The translations under genes were made by a program, and so were the position numbers. The notes below the pieces were generated by a model, which saw only the letters and a program-made list of their open reading frames with translations, had not been told where the DNA came from and ran no database searches. From a phage, in sequence record NC_100372.1: 64,000 nucleotides of DNA; one strand, written 5' to 3'. Positions 3,373 through 48,838 of this stretch are shown piece by piece; the stretch's first letter is position 1, and every line of letters starts with the position of its first letter.

Positions 3373-4504
3373 AGAATATCCGCTTATTGAGTCCATAGAT
3401 TGTCTAGCTGATCTTCTTGAACCTGACGCTATAGTTTATTATGACTTCGATCAGGTTGCATACCAAGCTGCAGCAAGCTGTGAAAAAAGGACAATTGAGG
3501 TAACACATAAAGCCTCCGGACGTAAGAAGGTGTTTAAAACACGAACAGAGTTTTGGGGGAGGCAGAAGAACGCAGTTGGCGGCTGGTTAAAGGCTGAGAA
3601 CACCAACCGTGAAGCTGCATGTAAAAAAGCTGGCAAGGAGTTTATTCCGTGGACACGAGAAGATTTCGATGTCTTGGATATCCAAACCCCTGATCCTGTA
3701 GAGAACTGCTTGCACACAATTAAGTGTAAAGCTAATGCAGTCCTTAACTATCTCGGTATTCCTGAAGATCGGTGCGTAGGGGTGCTTGGAGGAACAGGCA
3801 ATTTCAGACTAGATCTTCCCATGCCGGAACGATATAAAGCCAACCGTAACAATACTCTTCGACCACTGTTGCTTGAAGATGCAAGACAGTATCTACAAAA
3901 GCAATATAACGCTCAAGTGATCAACGGTATTGAAGCTGACGACTGGTTAGCTATCCAGCAATTTGAAGGTTGGAACCACTACCAGAAAACAGGAAAGTTC
4001 AACAAGTTTATTATCTCTATAGATAAGGACCAGCGAACACTTCCTGGGCTTGTATTCGATCCGATGAGGAACGATAAAGGTGATTTTGTAAGAGAGACAC
4101 CTATGCTCATTGATAACGGTATGGGTAACATATTCATGAAACCAAACGGCGATGTTGGTGGGTATGGAATGTTGTTCTTCGGTTATCAAATGCTGTGTGG
4201 TGACTCGGCTGACAATATTAAGCCTTACCAAGGGCTTATTGGTAAAGGAAAGTTTGGAGATGCATCTGCATTCTCCTTACTGTCTCAGTGCAGCACACCG
4301 AAAGAGATGTGGTTAGCAATTATTGATCAGTATAAAAAATGGTTTCCGAAAGGTGCCGTTAAGTATACTGATTTCAATGGTATCGACCGTAGGATTTCCG
4401 TAGGCCAGTGGATGAGTATAATTTTTGACTGTTTGTATATGAAGCGAACATTCAATGATCAAACAAAACTTGTTAACGTTCTTAGAAATGTTGGAGCAAT
4501 TTGA
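3365..4504 (+). CDS. 5'-3' exonuclease / flap endonuclease (FEN, PIN-like)
   Basis: GIEADDWLA, ISIDKDQRTL and CGDSADNIKP acidic-cluster motifs typical of T5 D15 / T7 gp6 / Pol I 5' nuclease family. TTG start preceded by AGGAGGG. Confidence 0.8.
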   Translation: MSREYPLIESIDCLADLLEPDAIVYYDFDQVAYQAAASCEKRTIEVTHKASGRKKVFKTRTEFWGRQKNAVGGWLKAENTNREAACKKAGKEFIPWTREDFDVLDIQTPDPVENCLHTIKCKANAVLNYLGIPEDRCVGVLGGTGNFRLDLPMPERYKANRNNTLRPLLLEDARQYLQKQYNAQVINGIEADDWLAIQQFEGWNHYQKTGKFNKFIISIDKDQRTLPGLVFDPMRNDKGDFVRETPMLIDNGMGNIFMKPNGDVGGYGMLFFGYQMLCGDSADNIKPYQGLIGKGKFGDASAFSLLSQCSTPKEMWLAIIDQYKKWFPKGAVKYTDFNGIDRRISVGQWMSIIFDCLYMKRTFNDQTKLVNVLRNVGAI

Positions 4505-7211: not shown

Positions 7212-8018
7212 TTGAGCAAGAAAGAGTCCAACGACAAATATTACACAGACCCCGAGTATGCAGAATATCTTGTTGGTAAAGTAAAAGGTAAGTATGGGAA
7301 TTGTGCATACGTTGAGCCTTCTGCTGGAAAGGGTTCTTTTTCAAAACTATTTTCAGAGATACTGTCGTATGATTTGGTACCAGATCCTGAATTTGAAGGC
7401 CCAACCCCGTGTATTAAGGCAAACTTCTTAGAGGTGTACCCCAAGGCCGATGTATTCATAGGTAATCCTCCATTCGGCAAAAATTCGTCTTTAGCTTGCA
7501 AGTTCTTTAACCACTGTGCATCATTGCTAGAGCCTGGTGGAGCTATAGCCTTCATCTTGCCACGGACTTTTGAAAAAATATTTTTTGCAAACAAACTGGA
7601 CATGTCGATGCACCTTATTTACAGCGAAAGGTGCCCCAAGAACTCGTTTTTACTTAACGGCAAACCTTATGACGTGCCATGTGTTTTCCAAATTTGGGAG
7701 AAAAAGGTGTGCAATAGGGACCCTGTAGAGATCGGGGAGAATAAGTTATTTTCTTTTAGCACACCGGACGATTACGACTTCTGTATAAGACGTGTTGGGT
7801 ATAATGCTGGGAAAGTATTGGGAGAGGATGACCCAAAATCTGAAGAATCAACATATTTCATAAAATCTTTAGTTGATGGTGTTGACAGAGTGTTTGCTGA
7901 GTGCTATTCTTCTTTTCAAGAAGAAGCAGGTAAGACTGCTGGAATGAAGAGTATAGGCAAGAAAGAACTACAATACATTTTGGAGACCAGGTATGATCAA
8001 AAGTATAGACTTGACTAA
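7212..8018 (+). CDS. DNA N6-adenine (or N4-cytosine) methyltransferase, NPPF type
   Basis: AdoMet motif VEPSAGKGSF followed by catalytic IGNPPFG. TTG 7212 after GGAGG is preferred because the track start 7182 lies inside the terminator hairpin. Confidence 0.8.
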   Translation: MSKKESNDKYYTDPEYAEYLVGKVKGKYGNCAYVEPSAGKGSFSKLFSEILSYDLVPDPEFEGPTPCIKANFLEVYPKADVFIGNPPFGKNSSLACKFFNHCASLLEPGGAIAFILPRTFEKIFFANKLDMSMHLIYSERCPKNSFLLNGKPYDVPCVFQIWEKKVCNRDPVEIGENKLFSFSTPDDYDFCIRRVGYNAGKVLGEDDPKSEESTYFIKSLVDGVDRVFAECYSSFQEEAGKTAGMKSIGKKELQYILETRYDQKYRLD

Positions 8019-33573: not shown

Positions 33574-33713
33574 CACACAAGTCTGCTTTGCAGGTTTAGC
33601 TGCTCAGCTAAGGTTCTGGAGTCACCTATAACATCTTCCAACTAAATTTCCTACCAACACAGTTACTTACCCACCACACATGACTGTTTGCTTGTTTAGT
33701 GAGCAGTCATCCC

Positions 33714-33741
33714 TTGACATTCTTGCCTATCTTGATAAAAT
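33714..33741 (+). promoter_or_regulatory. sigma70-type promoter firing into ORF-free DNA
   Basis: TTGACA(33714-33719), 16 nt spacer, TAAAAT(33736-33741). No ORF with an SD downstream. Confidence 0.5.
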
Positions 33742-33936
33742 TAAGTTCTTCTCTTTTCTTTTACCGAGTAATTCGGGTTTTCTGTTCTCTTCGGTTTGAA
33801 GGGGTATGGAGATACACCTGAGTGAACAGGGTGAACAACCGAACCTTTAGCTATGGCATTAGCATGGCGAAGCGGACGGGTGACGAAAGAGGGGCCGGAG
33901 GACACCAGTCACTGCCATATAGTATATGGGTGATAA

Positions 33937-34476
33937 CCTGAAGAGTCTGAATAAGTGTTTAAGTACCAGTCAGAGGAAAAGGTGAATGGTAGCCGAAGGG
34001 GGAGGGGGGTTTCTTATATCTTTAATTTGTATACTTTATATACACTTGTAAACCAATTCAATTAGGATCTGTTTACCACACAAAGTGGATGGAGACAAAT
34101 ATCACCTATTAAACTTGAATTATTTATAGAAAATACCACAACACCGCTTAAGTCTTTGATTTTACACACAAATCTTACAAATATCCTACCTCCATATTTA
34201 ACATACTTGTAACATATTCCATATCCTACCTGCCTGATCAATTTACTCCCACCACATTCCCACATTTTCCCTGTCTGTACTACCCCACCCCCGCCGGGAG
34301 TCCCGTCATATCTGGCTTTCCAGCAAATATCACACCCACAAATATCATCACCTGAAGAGGGTTTCATCCCATAATACCTGCCTTACCTGAAGAGCGCTTC
34401 ATACACCACCTAAATTTTTTAATTGACCCCTCCCCGCCGCCGGAGAGGTTGGCTTTTCCCACACAGGCCTGAAGAG
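33937..34476 (+). repeat. CCTGAAGAG 9-mer, 4 direct copies
   Basis: Copies at 33937-33945, 34351-34359, 34386-34394 and 34468-34476. Confidence 0.8.
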
Positions 34477-34706
34477 TCAGCCAGAAATATCTGAACAGGT
34501 CCAGTTATGCCCCGATTTTGTGCTTGTCCTACAGGAGTGCTGCCCTGTCAGGAGCCGGTAGCGACTGGAGTGCTGCCAGGCGGACGGAATGGGAATACTT
34601 CTCATTTTTATAATAATTCTCAAATATCGAGGCAGTGAGGCAAATTAATAGGCCAGGCCGTTCACACAGTGGCACAACATTTGCAATCTATCTTGTGGGA
34701 GTGAAT

Positions 34707-34740
34707 GAGAATACCTATCATTGTGAGAATGGTTATCATT
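34707..34740. promoter_or_regulatory. Two adjacent Fur-box-like sites (GAGAATNNNTATCATT)
   Basis: GAGAATACCTATCATT (34707-34722) and GAGAATGGTTATCATT (34725-34740). The second matches 13/19 of GATAATGATAATCATTATC. Confidence 0.4.
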
Positions 34741-35038
34741 ACGGGCAATTTAACATAATACCTATTATGCGCACCACTGGCGATACATACAGGGATTGAT
34801 AACATGGGTTACTGTTTACGCACATAACAATTATATTTATTACTATTTGTGTGGGATATAGTTAGCAACCAATAGATTAGATATTGACCTGCAGACTTCT
34901 GACCGTCCAGACGTCTAAACGCCCACACAACAAGGATTATACATACATTCCTGAATGTAAACAGGGCCGCAAAAAATGCTACCATACCAGTTTGTAAATT
35001 TTTCATGCAGCACTTGACAAAGAGGAGAAAAACTTGTC

Positions 35039-35100
35039 TGACACAATGTGACAAAATTGCCACTTTTGACACTTTTACCTTTGACACAATATGACACAAT
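35039..35100 (+). repeat. TGACACAAT iteron cluster (5 copies, 3 perfect)
   Basis: Perfect copies at 35039-35047, 35082-35090 and 35092-35100. Variants at 35049 (TGACAAAAT) and 35067 (TGACACTTT). Confidence 0.8.
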
Positions 35101-35193
35101 AACGGCTGTTACTATTCCATATCTCACTGTTTACGTATAGACTGTTTACGCCTGAATAGTTTACGCCCAAACTGTTTACACAGAGATGATAAG

Positions 35194-35432
35194 CCATGAC
35201 ATTCGTTTGCATGAAAACAATTAACAAGTTAATAATATATGACATAATATAAAAGCAGGGCAACTATTAGAAGATCTATAGTTGCCTTGCTTGTTATGTC
35301 ATGATTAACTAAATACAAGGCAACTATGATCTGAATAATAGATTGCAGAAAAACTATCACGGGGGTGATTGTTACTGCTTTTATATTATGTCGCGACTCC
35401 GTCGCGCCATGCCATTCGTTTGCATAGTTGCC
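35194..35432. repeat. Nested direct-repeat / inverted-repeat / palindrome structure
   Basis: 19-nt DR CCATGaCATTCGTTTGCAT (35194-35212 and 35407-35425, 1 mismatch). 18-bp perfect IR GACATAATATAAAAGCAG (35241-35258) / CTGCTTTTATATTATGTC (35375-35392). GGCAACTAT/ATAGTTGCC at 35259, 35278, 35319 and 35424. Confidence 0.85.
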
Positions 35433-36040
35433 TTATTGTTACAGGTAAAACAATTACATTATTAATTATTTCTTATCTTTCTCTTAGTCATCTAATGATT
35501 CCAGTCAGTATAGTAATGTACAGTAAACATTAGACGACTAAAGATTTCTCTGTGTATAATAACTTATCGTGACAATTTCGAACTGTTTACGAAAAATGTT
35601 GACACCTGAGCTGATTTATGTTATGCAGTTTACACGAATAATTATTTTATGCAGGTATTGACTATTCCGTTATTCTGTGGTTGGAATAAATACTTTGCAG
35701 ACTATAGAATGGCGTGCGTACGTGAATTCTGAGATCTGGCGGCTATAGTTATACTCGATTTTTCGCGTAGAACACGCTTTCGATGCTGTGTAAGTGTATG
35801 ACTTATAAAGATTTTTAGTTGTTGACAAGATATTGGAGATGTGCATCAGGTTAAAATTTGTGCAATAGCGGCATTACGTGCACTTTTGGGAGAGAAAACG
35901 GGTAAAAATGGCCCTGCTACCACACAATGAAAGATTATGCAATGGTTATTTTCCATGTATATTTGTACAGTATGTGGGATTGATGGCTAGTCAATTATTC
36001 CACTTGCCAGGTAGGGCCGTTTATGGTAGGAGAAGAGCAG

Positions 36041-36069
36041 ACAAAAAGAAAGGGGCCTTTAAGCCCCTT
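36041..36069 (-). terminator. Rho-independent terminator ending the - strand arm
   Basis: On the - strand: AAGGGGC-TTAAAG-GCCCCTT followed by TCTTTTTGT. Confidence 0.8.
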
Positions 36070-36087
36070 GATAATTCAGTTAAGAAA

Positions 36088-37929: not shown

Positions 37930-37937
37930 TATTCCAC

Positions 37938-38072
37938 CTAAAACAATGAGTTAATATATAACATTAGATCGCTGACTACCAGGACAACACTGATCAGCAC
38001 ATACCTAACCATAAGGGGAAAGATCGCCAACATTGCCACCACGATCCCCATGGTAATAATTATCTTTCTCAT
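37938..38072 (-). CDS. Membrane mini-protein (44 aa, 2 hydrophobic spans)
   Basis: MRKIIITMGIVVAMLAIFPLMVRYVLISVVLVVSDLMLYINSLF. ATG 2 nt after the upstream stop. Below the track cut-off. Confidence 0.5.
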   Translation of the reverse strand: MRKIIITMGIVVAMLAIFPLMVRYVLISVVLVVSDLMLYINSLF

Positions 38073-38074
38073 GG

Positions 38075-45121: not shown

Positions 45122-45281
45122 TTTTGTACCTCCTCTTCAATTGTTACCTGCCCTGTAGCATAGGCCTACCAGGTTTGCAAGCTTTCACTCTCTCCTACCT
45201 GGTCAGTCAGGTCCTGCCAGGCTGGCCCCGCCAGGTTGCAGCGGTTGGTGTATTATGTTAGAAAAAATTTTTGAAGAAGTG

Positions 45282-45312
45282 TTGACAGCGGCCCCGCCAG
45301 GTGGCACAATAT
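45282..45312 (+). promoter_or_regulatory. Candidate + strand promoter upstream of hairpin element A
   Basis: TTGACA(45282-45287) then CACAAT/CAATAT at 17-19 nt. Antisense to all neighbouring genes. Confidence 0.4.
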
Positions 45313-45327
45313 ACCTATCGAAAGGAC

Positions 45328-45374
45328 GGCAGGCACCGGTGACGGGGGAGACAACCACCGGGGATGGGCGCTGC
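45328..45374 (+). repeat. GC-rich hairpin element, copy A (candidate ncRNA)
   Basis: GGCAGGCACCGGTGACGGGGGAGACAACCACCGGGGATGGGCGCTGC. Inner stem CCGGUG/CACCGG. Followed by the Fur-box-like GAGAACGGTTATCATTATC (45382-45400). Confidence 0.65.
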
Positions 45375-45461
45375 ATAAAATGAGAACGGTTATCATTATC
45401 ATTTAAAAATTTATGCAAAAAATCCTTGCTTTCTTTGTCCTGTGTGATACTATAATAACAA

Positions 45462-45504
45462 GCCGGGGCAACAGGGGCCGGGAGACAATCACCGGGGGTG
45501 CCCG
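45462..45504 (+). repeat. GC-rich hairpin element, copy B (candidate ncRNA)
   Basis: GCCGGGGCAACAGGGGCCGGGAGACAATCACCGGGGGTGCCCG. Starts 6 nt after a consensus TATAAT (45451-45456). Followed by the Fur-box-like GAGAATGATTATCATT (45518-45533). Confidence 0.65.
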
Positions 45505-45639
45505 TTATTCTGCAAACGAGAATGATTATCATTCAAAATTCTAAATGAGAACTTTTCGCATTTCATAAATTTAGTTAGCATGCTAATTACCTACCGTGAC
45601 AATTCTATATAAAATAATACCTCCTTAAATATTTCCATA

Positions 45640-46110
45640 TACAAATTTTAAAAATCCATTTCCGAAAACGAAAAATCGATTTCGTCCCCAAAAATTTCAG
45701 GTCGAGCTCCGGAACGATTTCCAGAAAATCTGATTCAGAAAACGAAAAACAGATCGAGTACTAAGAAATTTATCGAGAAAAATTTTCAGAAAATTCAATC
45801 TTTGAAACGAAAAACAGATCGAGTACTGAGAGAGATGTATCAAAACCTGCTGAGAATAATGGGTTTATTGTTATAAAGGGTCAAAGGTAAGCTGGGAAAG
45901 TTCCGGTAGAAGGGTGAGAGTATGTGCGGAAAATCTGGAATAGTAACTTAAAGTACGGTGCGAACGATAGAATGAGCAGCACATCTTATCGCGCCTGTCT
46001 TGAAAAATCCATTTTAGTTTTCGATCCATTTTCTGATTTTCTAAGAATTTTAAAATATCCGGCTAGGTAAAATATCAAAAGGAGGAAATCCATTTTAGAA
46101 ATCCTCCTTA
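45640..46110. repeat. AT-rich degenerate tandem repeats / iterons (origin-like)
   Basis: 22-nt perfect DR AACGAAAAACAGATCGAGTACT at 45741-45762 and 45806-45827, with a degenerate copy at 45667. AAATCCATTTTAG at 46005 and 46086, with variants at 45652 and 46023. Confidence 0.75.
46071..46109 (-). terminator. Rho-independent terminator
   Basis: On the - strand: AAGGAGGA-(15 nt loop)-TCCTCCTT followed by TTGATATTTT. Confidence 0.6.
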
Positions 46111-46138
46111 TACTTGATGTGCCAGGGATTTTCAAGTA

Positions 46139-47964: not shown

Positions 47965-48423
47965 TCAACACTCTTTGTACTCCACCACGATAATATCTAT
48001 ATCAAAAGTGGCAAGGTTAATAATGTCCTCTACATGTTCCCACTTCAAACCGCCTATGCCGCACCCGATCTTAGGGATGTAGAATGGTAAAATCGACCCC
48101 TCAAATACTTCATTGACTCGCTCAAAGCCTTTCAGTATTGAGAAATATTCAGCATTAGGCCCTGGGTAGAACTGAGTATACAGATTTATTCCGTAGACAA
48201 TACCTCTCGGAGATAAGTGCTCCCAGCGGGAGAACGCGCCCAGTTTACTTAGGCAACCGTGCATAGTCATTTTATCAGCTTCCAATGCTTGAGGGAACTC
48301 ACGGGCAATCTGTTTTGCTACACCCTTACCCATTGTGTGGAAGCAGTTACAACCGTGGATCAGGTGACCATCACCGCTCTTAAAAAGGGAGATTAAATCT
48401 CCCTCTACAGTATCAATAATCAC
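47965..48423 (-). CDS. Macrodomain protein, TARG1/DarG-like (ADP-ribose hydrolase family)
   Basis: HGCNCFHTMGKGVAKQIA and IPKIGCGIGGLKWEHVEDII match the TARG1-type NC..MG.G(I/V)A and P.IGCG..GL.W motifs. GTG 48423 overlaps the upstream stop. Confidence 0.8.
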   Translation of the reverse strand: MIIDTVEGDLISLFKSGDGHLIHGCNCFHTMGKGVAKQIAREFPQALEADKMTMHGCLSKLGAFSRWEHLSPRGIVYGINLYTQFYPGPNAEYFSILKGFERVNEVFEGSILPFYIPKIGCGIGGLKWEHVEDIINLATFDIDIIVVEYKEC

Positions 48424-48838
48424 GATATTCCAGCTCCTCTTCCACAATTTCAAAAAACTCAGTCCAGCACTGTGGCATATTGGAGTTACCGAAGTGGCTT
48501 TCATAGTAAAGGTTTTTACCGCTCGGAAGATAGAAATCTGTTACCTCATAAAATCCACAATCGTCGCACTCTCCCTCTTCAAACTTGGCCTTAACCTTAA
48601 TGCCGAGGAAGGTGAAAAGTTTATGGATATCTTCGGTCTCGAACTCCCAATTAATGTTGTTTTCCGCATCGGTGTAAAACTGGATCAGTAGGCCATCATC
48701 CATTTTTCCAAAATATTCTGTGAAGTAGCTTCCTTCCCAGAAGTCTTTGTGACAAATAATATCCATGCGCTTGCCCATAATAAAGGTGTGGGCGTTTCGT
48801 GCATCGTCACGAATCAGTTTTGGCATTTCATAAATCAT
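48413..48838 (-). CDS. Hypothetical protein, translationally coupled to the macrodomain gene
   Basis: Start as in the ORF track. No motif recognised. Confidence 0.65.
   Translation of the reverse strand: MIYEMPKLIRDDARNAHTFIMGKRMDIICHKDFWEGSYFTEYFGKMDDGLLIQFYTDAENNINWEFETEDIHKLFTFLGIKVKAKFEEGECDDCGFYEVTDFYLPSGKNLYYESHFGNSNMPQCWTEFFEIVEEELEYRDY

Follow-up and report, generated by a model that had tools for sequence, protein, structure and literature searches.

The DNA analyzed here is a 64-kb stretch (sequence record NC_100372.1; hereafter the window, to which all positions refer) out of the ~137-kb genome of an rV5-like Vequintavirus, and the element in question is a 19-bp palindrome that resembles the binding site of the bacterial iron sensor Fur (the Fur box) and recurs in 2 islands free of open reading frames (ORFs). 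About 120 phage records match both regions at 85–99% identity; nearly all of them are rV5-like myoviruses of E. coli, and the closest are ECP26, S127 BCL3, and EI-SP-GF. The genes of the window run on the plus strand up to ~33.6 kb and on the minus strand from 36.1 to 45.1 kb, resuming after island 2 to 64 kb. Islands 1 and 2 (Table 1) carry no annotation in rV5 and most of its relatives, and a tRNA search and an Rfam search (gathering and E-value thresholds) of the window and 5 related loci returned no match. A peak of GC skew at island 1 was rejected as a signal, since it merely tracks the switch of coding strand. A Macro-domain protein of 179 residues (47965–48504, minus strand; PHROG annotation “phosphatase”) is encoded 2.4 kb to the right of island 2.

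When both strands are considered, the motif is the palindrome AATGAGAAT-N-ATTCTCATT, which is equivalent to the 7-1-7 arrangement TGAGAAT-N-ATTMTCA. With AATGAGAATNATTCTCATT as the query and a threshold of 4 mismatches or fewer, 6 palindromes were found (starting at 34588, 34704, 34722, 45379, 45515, and 45544), compared with 0.75 expected in the window. All 6 are located within the islands, for which, taken alone, a first-order Markov control gave an expectation of 0.046 sites. Five sites match the palindrome at 15 or more of 18 positions (0.10 expected), and GAGAAYNNTTATCATT with up to 2 mismatches has 7 matches in the window versus 1.43 expected, a number that none of 100 shuffles reached. 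Island 1 contains 2 pairs of sites with an 18-bp spacing in each, one of the pairs including a weak element, and island 2 contains the sites II-A, II-B, and II-C, the last 2 of which are 29 bp apart. A previous sequence-only reading of this DNA had listed 5 copies of a Fur-box-like motif. The positions and sequences of these copies were correct, but the count was too low: there are 6 sites plus a weak seventh, the site at 34588–34606 had been missed, and the “partial copy” GAGAAC at 45547 is actually part of a full palindromic site (45544–45562). The same reading placed the motif only in the 2 ORF-free islands, as is the case for all 6 palindromes and also beyond the window: the complete 136-kb genome of the relative EI-SP-GF has 7 sites at 4 mismatches or fewer, of which 6 are orthologues of the island sites and 1 is a weak 4-mismatch match elsewhere.

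Table 1. Islands, terminal repeat, palindromes, and predicted promoters of the window.
Feature	Position	Strand	Sequence or pattern	Remarks
ORF-free island 1	33600–36087			Between convergent gene arms; rich in iterons and inverted repeats; without credible ORF
Counterpart of 459-bp direct terminal repeat (physical genome end)	34579–35038			ECP2309 positions 1–459 = 136405–136863, 100% identity
Fur-box palindrome I-1	34588–34606		AATGGGAATACTTCTCATT	2 mismatches to AATGAGAATNATTCTCATT; begins 9 bp inside terminal repeat
Weak Fur-like 7-1-7 element (tentative)	34608–34622		TTATAATAATTCTCA	12/14 matches to TGATAATNATTATCA; 18 bp from I-1
Fur-box palindrome I-2	34704–34722		AATGAGAATACCTATCATT	6-bp-shifted 19-mer at 34707: 13/19 versus classical consensus
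Fur-box palindrome I-3	34722–34740		TGTGAGAATGGTTATCATT	18 bp from I-2; 19-mer at 34725: 15/19
Candidate leftward promoter (predicted)	34755–34783	−	TCGCCA-17-TATTAT	9/12 matches; transcript would cross I-3 and I-2 at ~+8 to +44
ORF-free island 2	45122–46138			Within leftward early-gene arm
Sigma-70-type promoter P_A (predicted)	45282–45310	+	TTGACA-17-CACAAT, upstream TG	10/12 matches; II-A ~70 nt downstream
Fur-box palindrome II-A	45379–45397		AATGAGAACGGTTATCATT	6-bp-shifted overlap to 45403; 19-mer at 45382: 16/19 on reverse strand
Sigma-70-type promoter P_B (predicted)	45426–45456	+	TTGCTT-16-TG-a-TACTAT (or TATAAT)	Hexamers conserved
Fur-box palindrome II-B	45515–45533		AACGAGAATGATTATCATT	Best site; 1–2 palindrome mismatches; 15/19 versus classical consensus
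Fur-box-like palindrome II-C	45544–45562		AATGAGAACTTTTCGCATT	3 palindrome mismatches; 10/19 versus E. coli consensus; 29 bp from II-B
Candidate promoter P3	45575–45603	+	TTAGCA-17-GACAAT	Weak here; II-C at ~−58, II-B at ~−87

All 6 sites occupy orthologous positions in 7 Vequintavirus genomes, and no further site was found in the 14–25 kb examined around them. In the window, the motif is confined to the islands, and its 6 positions are kept in relatives; an equal frequency in coding DNA or absence from related phages had been named beforehand as possible refutations of a Fur role. In these 7 genomes, the substitutions are confined to the central bases in 4 of the 6 sites, and I-2 and II-C vary in one arm as well. 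The centre alone varies in I-1 (ACT or CAT), the arms of I-3 are fixed around a variable centre (TGTGAGAA[TGG/TAG/CTG/CCA]TTATCATT), and II-A is retained in all 7 genomes. The weak element next to I-1 overlaps a TATAAT, in place of which most relatives have TATAAC.

The comparison across genera included Seunavirus, Certrevirus, Klebsiella Vequintavirinae, and Phapecoctavirus, the last of which belongs to another subfamily. In a BLAST search with island 2, only positions 45478–45573 align (80–88% identity), that is to say, II-B, II-C, and ~35 bases upstream. The II-B core GAATG-TTATCATT is unchanged across 5 genera, and the position of II-C is kept between genera, with AATGAGAATGCTTCTCATT as the sequence of the site there. 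In GAP31 and KP12, the terminal-type islands could not be aligned to island 1, yet they contain Fur-type palindromes. Because the motif is retained where the surrounding island does not align, the motif itself appears to be under selection.

Fur boxes are textbook elements, and the phage sites share with those of enterobacteria (fhuA, fepA-fes, fepB-entC, and iucA) the AT-rich 19-bp palindrome, the 7-1-7 organization with a degenerate centre, the repeated hexamers, the 6-bp phasing of overlapping sites, and consensus scores that are equal or better. Against the classical 19-mer GATAATGATAATCATTATC, 5 of the 6 sites score 12–16/19 and II-C scores 10/19, with 1–3 palindrome mismatches, and the E. 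coli reference regions fepA-fes, fepD-entS, fepB-entC, and fhuA score 13–16/19 with 3–4 palindrome mismatches; 5 of the 6 phage sites are at the level of the reference Fur sites. The best copies, previously credited with 13–14 of 19 positions, reach 15–16/19 (19-mers at 34725, 45382, and 45518). At 15/19 or better, the window has 4 matches versus 0.34 expected, 3 of them in the islands. The fourth, at 38052, has 5 palindrome mismatches and is treated as a chance match; it falls in the start region of an unlisted 45-residue hydrophobic ORF (MRKIIITMGIVVAML..., 37936–38073, minus strand). Overlapping matches shifted by 6 bp are clustered at 34701/34707, 34719/34725, 45376/45382/45388, and 45512/45518, as described for real Fur clusters (PMC2189734), and the 6-bp offset is also the dominant spacing in 120 viral contigs (described below). 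In addition, II-B with its flank has 16 consecutive nucleotides in common with the E. coli fhuA Fur box AAACGAGAATGATTAT, and a fhuA oligonucleotide was gel-shifted by Fur (Chen et al., PMC2189734).

The exact pattern AATGAGAATNATTMTCATT was also found in bacterial genomes of many phyla, where, among the matches listed, it is intergenic and located just upstream of genes. Ten hand-picked downstream proteins from these listed matches comprise 3 TonB-dependent receptors, 2 siderophore-type periplasmic binding proteins, 1 ZnuA/SitA-type protein, a ZIP transporter, a cupredoxin, an AraC-type regulator, and 1 OprB porin. About 9 of the 10 are metal-uptake proteins or related to them, and this set of genes bears the signature of the Fur regulon. 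A tblastn search with E. coli Fur revealed no homologue in the window, none across 1.2 Mb of loci from related and unrelated phages, and none among the Vequintavirinae and T5-like records of the collection. Judged by its sequence, the palindrome is a canonical Fur box; this assignment is supported as far as the sequence evidence reaches, and the Fur protein of the host quite probably binds these sites.

The same palindrome exists in Vequintavirinae, Stephanstirmvirinae, T5-like phages, and numerous contigs from uncultivated phages. At least 120 IMG/VR contigs contain the 16-mer GAGAATGATTATCATT, and 75 of the 120 have clusters of 2–11 Fur-type sites within 400 bp. A two-site query against cultured phages returned 714 records from at least 3 families, with T5-like phages, Vequintavirinae, and Phapecoctavirus predominating among the records listed. 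In T5-like phages, the untranslated Repeat Region 3, which is located in the terminal repeat, includes 5–7 Fur-type palindromes, some of them perfect (AATGAGAATGATTCTCATT). A study of this region labelled the palindromes as function-unknown or as possible restriction sites, without mention of Fur (10.1101/866236). In T5_ev212 (L254, record 9.6–10.1 kb) and Spc35 (L263, 8570–9075), the palindromes, 2 of which are perfect, flank 4 DnaA boxes; in the rV5-like islands, DnaA boxes are not enriched. A location of the T5-like arrays exactly at the boundary of the terminal repeat was ruled out in Spc35, where the array is 0.5–1 kb inside. Among the IMG/VR contigs, Fur-type boxes were also seen 10–50 bp from a parS-like TGTTCCACGTGAAACA (L027, L030, and L040) or from DnaA boxes TGTGGATAA in 2–3 copies (L046 and L090), which suggests non-coding hubs of host-protein sites.

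All-against-all blastp of the ORFs within 2.5 kb of the 75 clusters did not reveal a shared neighbour protein, the top family being present in 8 of the 75 loci (no more than 11%). The lack of a common neighbour protein family points to a factor of the host and not to a protein that the phages have in common. This result bears on an alternative already raised by the sequence-only reading, namely that the sites are operators or iterons of a phage-encoded dimeric DNA-binding protein with Fur-like specificity. Such a protein would suit the iteron-rich islands, where the sites sit amid other private repeat families, as well as the left half-sites, which consistently read TGAGAAT and not TGATAAT, and the recurrence of the half-site variant ATTCGCATT in phage arrays; it could be encoded among the genes of these phages, most of which have no known function. 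However, the palindrome is not private to one lineage but spans 2 subfamilies, the T5-like phages, and the contigs; its exact sequence is, among the matches listed, the Fur box upstream of bacterial metal-uptake genes; no Fur homologue is encoded in the records searched; and GAGAAT half-sites also exist in the bona fide Fur boxes of fhuA and iucA. The bacterial context, the identity with fhuA, the scores, the presence in unrelated phages, and the missing homologue together favour a Fur box over a look-alike, and a private phage operator is disfavoured and appears improbable; chance is disfavoured as well.

If the palindromes are genuine host Fur boxes, iron-loaded Fur dimers would occupy small clusters of sites, 2 pairs in island 1 and 3 sites in island 2. 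Each site is on or beside a predicted sigma-70-type promoter for transcription of the non-coding islands, and Fur occupancy would tie this transcription to the iron status of the host through promoter occlusion, a roadblock, or, at the upstream sites, antagonised silencing. Island 2 is composed of 2 tandem units, each with a sigma-70-type promoter, a GC-rich segment (GGGAGACAAYCACCGGGG), and a Fur box. Relative to P_B, II-A is located at ~−76, II-B at ~+60, and II-C at ~+89. The P_B hexamers are kept across 5 genera and the spacer varies freely, as would be expected of a real promoter. The paper on the Vequintavirinae phage CB7 was consulted for transcriptome data and contains none. P3 aligns with strong TTGACA-17/18-TGnGATAAT promoters of Seunavirus and Klebsiella phages. 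In island 1, the promoter TTGTGG-17-TATCAT suggested previously does exist at 34693–34721, but it is weak (8/12 matches) and only one among several candidates on both strands.

Several other repeats accompany these promoters. The unit formed by CACCGGrGGTGCCCG, ~10 nt, and a Fur box is present in tandem at 45324–45400 and 45460–45533 and recurs at a second locus in other genera, namely in GAP31 (L261 ~7940–7985, record 30363) and KP12 (L262 ~3636–3680), as if it were a composite module. The sequence TTTGTAAAGAnnTGTAAAG is kept in 5 non-rV5 genomes (L002–L006) ~40–60 nt upstream of the −35 element equivalent to that of P_B (alignment columns 80–100); rV5-like phages have a degenerate version of it. 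GTAAA-N5-GTAAA is the pattern of a CpxR box, and the sequence may represent an UP element or a site for another host factor. A-rich direct repeats of 47–55 nt, which contain GAAAACGAAAAACAGATCGAGTACT, are located at 45651–45831. Their core TCGATCGAGAA was found at the corresponding position in the Seunavirus and Klebsiella relatives, and the untranslated region of a T5-like phage (L254) holds the similar GAGATCGAGAAAAA.

The sites follow conserved promoters at a distance of 60–90 nt and come after a GC-rich stem, a position that would also allow the palindromes to act as RNA hairpins or processing sites in non-coding RNAs transcribed from P_A and P_B, and unit A indeed folds better than its shuffled versions (z = −2.3). 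By contrast, the z values of the remaining units are near zero (+0.8 to −0.7), the covariation term of RNAalifold is +0.37, that is, none, no Rfam family matches, and the island 1 sites do not have a comparable promoter context. The mismatches between the arms are conserved and uncompensated, II-B having 2 mismatched positions in all rV5-like phages, which argues against RNA hairpins. A structured small RNA from P_B was rejected on the same covariation term and on unremarkable folding energies. An RNA element is accordingly disfavoured, and we regard it as very improbable.

A feature of island 1 that the sequence-only reading did not recognize opens roles other than transcription. Because the stretch at 34579–35038 equals the direct terminal repeat of ECP2309, and because several records of the genus share its boundaries, island 1 is the physical terminus of the genome and the concatemer junction, flanked by the convergent gene arms. 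The same 2 boundaries begin or end 4 other records. For a related Klebsiella phage, a terminal repeat of 514 bp was reported from doubled coverage and PhageTerm (PMC9862379). The sites of island 1 are all located in the first 162 bp of the repeat. GenBank record MT884009.2 (bov11CS3) starts at window position 34579, the start of the terminal repeat, and LC739538.1 (phiWec189) starts at 45378, at site II-A.

Island 1 contains other repeat families. The iteron CTGTTTACG is present in at least 6 copies (35119–35180, 34808–34820, 35579–35591, and 34069–34076), 4 of them consecutive at a 15-bp spacing, and has the appearance of an origin or of a regulatory array. The direct repeats TGACACAAT(R)TGACA and a set of inverted repeats are located at 35039–35100 and 35241–35441, the latter set including GACATAATATAAAAGCAG, whose complement is found 116 nt away, and 4 copies of CAAGGCAACTAT in both orientations. 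Three copies of ACCTGAAGAG(N)GNTTCAT (33933–33945, 34347–34367, and 34382–34402) are located in the C-rich left portion of the island, immediately beyond the terminal repeat.

The location at the genome end bears on a second alternative, in which Fur binds but the arrays serve as a sink or as architecture and not as operators. As a sink, replicating genomes would soak up Fur, so that host iron uptake is derepressed or Fur is kept off AT-rich phage promoters. As architecture, a Fur-DNA complex at the genome end would assist injection, end handling, or packaging, comparable with the integration host factor (IHF) at lambda cos and with the DnaA boxes proposed for the T5 injection stop. Both versions would account for a first island 1 site that lies 9 bp into the terminal repeat, for the 5–7 palindromes beside DnaA boxes in Repeat Region 3 of T5-like phages, for clusters of 2–11 sites that go beyond the need of a promoter, for terminase-subunit-like proteins as the commonest neighbours of the clusters, for the poor placement of the sites relative to strong promoters, and for the 29-bp spacing that recurs in several unrelated phages. 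However, rV5-like phages have only 6–7 sites per genome, the Spc35 array lies well inside its repeat boundary, and island 2 is away from any terminus. The terminal location, the parallel with T5, and the large arrays elsewhere fit a sink better than they fit transcriptional control. Overall, we consider such a use of the arrays unlikely.

Two known systems help to place these possibilities. Like Repeat Region 3 of T5, the injection-stop region, island 1 is a conserved, untranslated, repeat-rich region that includes terminal-repeat DNA and carries probable sites for a host protein; unlike the rV5-like phages, T5 has a repeat of 10 kb (versus 0.46 kb) and DnaA boxes in this region, as well as a two-step injection, which is not known for rV5-like phages. 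IHF at lambda cos and att is a host factor that serves phage DNA transactions, and the likeness consists in a host DNA-binding protein placed at non-coding phage DNA close to an end of the genome; Fur, by contrast, is a metal-sensing repressor and not a general architectural protein. We know of no packaging role for Fur.

Several observations weigh against host Fur boxes that make transcription of the islands iron-dependent: (i) the T of the E. coli consensus is replaced by a G in the left half-sites (TGAGAAT); (ii) II-C is a poor match to that consensus, as its score shows; (iii) island 1 is ~93–95% conserved overall within the genus, so that conservation at genus depth is not site-specific; (iv) unlike enterobacterial Fur boxes, the phage sites precede no iron gene and are located in ORF-free DNA, in one island terminal, and none of the genes flanking the islands is iron-related, all belonging to PHROGs of unknown function; (v) the sites are off-centre from any strong −35/−10 pair, only weak promoter matches overlap them (34693–34721 on the plus strand and 45566–45538 on the minus strand), and the stronger predicted promoters P_A and P_B are 60–90 nt upstream; and (vi) other phages have arrays of as many as 11 sites, more than promoter control would require. 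Taking these points together with the evidence for a Fur box, we hold the chance that the palindromes are genuine host Fur boxes, occupied so that island transcription depends on iron, to be about even. Should Fur bind, a transcriptional effect and a sequestering or architectural one would be similarly plausible.

The arrays of T5 relatives and those of the islands together suggest that the host iron sensor is either recruited or titrated by large lytic phages. A wider proposal, which we advance with somewhat less confidence, is that at least 3 lineages of large virulent phages (Vequintavirinae, Stephanstirmvirinae, and T5-like Demerecviridae) and many uncultivated phages keep arrays of host Fur boxes in conserved untranslated or terminal DNA as an input from the iron sensor or as a means of targeting it, and that the injection-stop palindromes of T5 are Fur sites. 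Under this proposal, the arrays would serve iron-tuned early non-coding transcription or genome-end functions, or they would sequester Fur and thereby derepress iron uptake.

Host Fur boxes on phage-borne DNA have precedents in temperate phages. The stx1 gene of Stx1 phages is Fur-regulated prophage cargo. Lambdoid coliphages carry sitABCD as cargo with a host Fur box (PMC6969025). These cases consist of a single box at the promoter of an iron-related cargo gene, whereas the sites described here form cargo-free arrays in the non-coding or terminal DNA of lytic phages. In our literature search, no account of Fur boxes in the genomes of virulent phages came up.

If the Fur-box reading is true, lytic viruses would directly sense or interfere with the iron homeostasis of their hosts. 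The reading would bear on 2 old puzzles, the role of the large untranslated islands of rV5-like phages and the ligand of the T5 injection-stop palindromes. Both rV5-like and T5-like phages are common candidates for therapy and biocontrol and are deployed in iron-limited settings, among them the gut, urine, and infected tissue.
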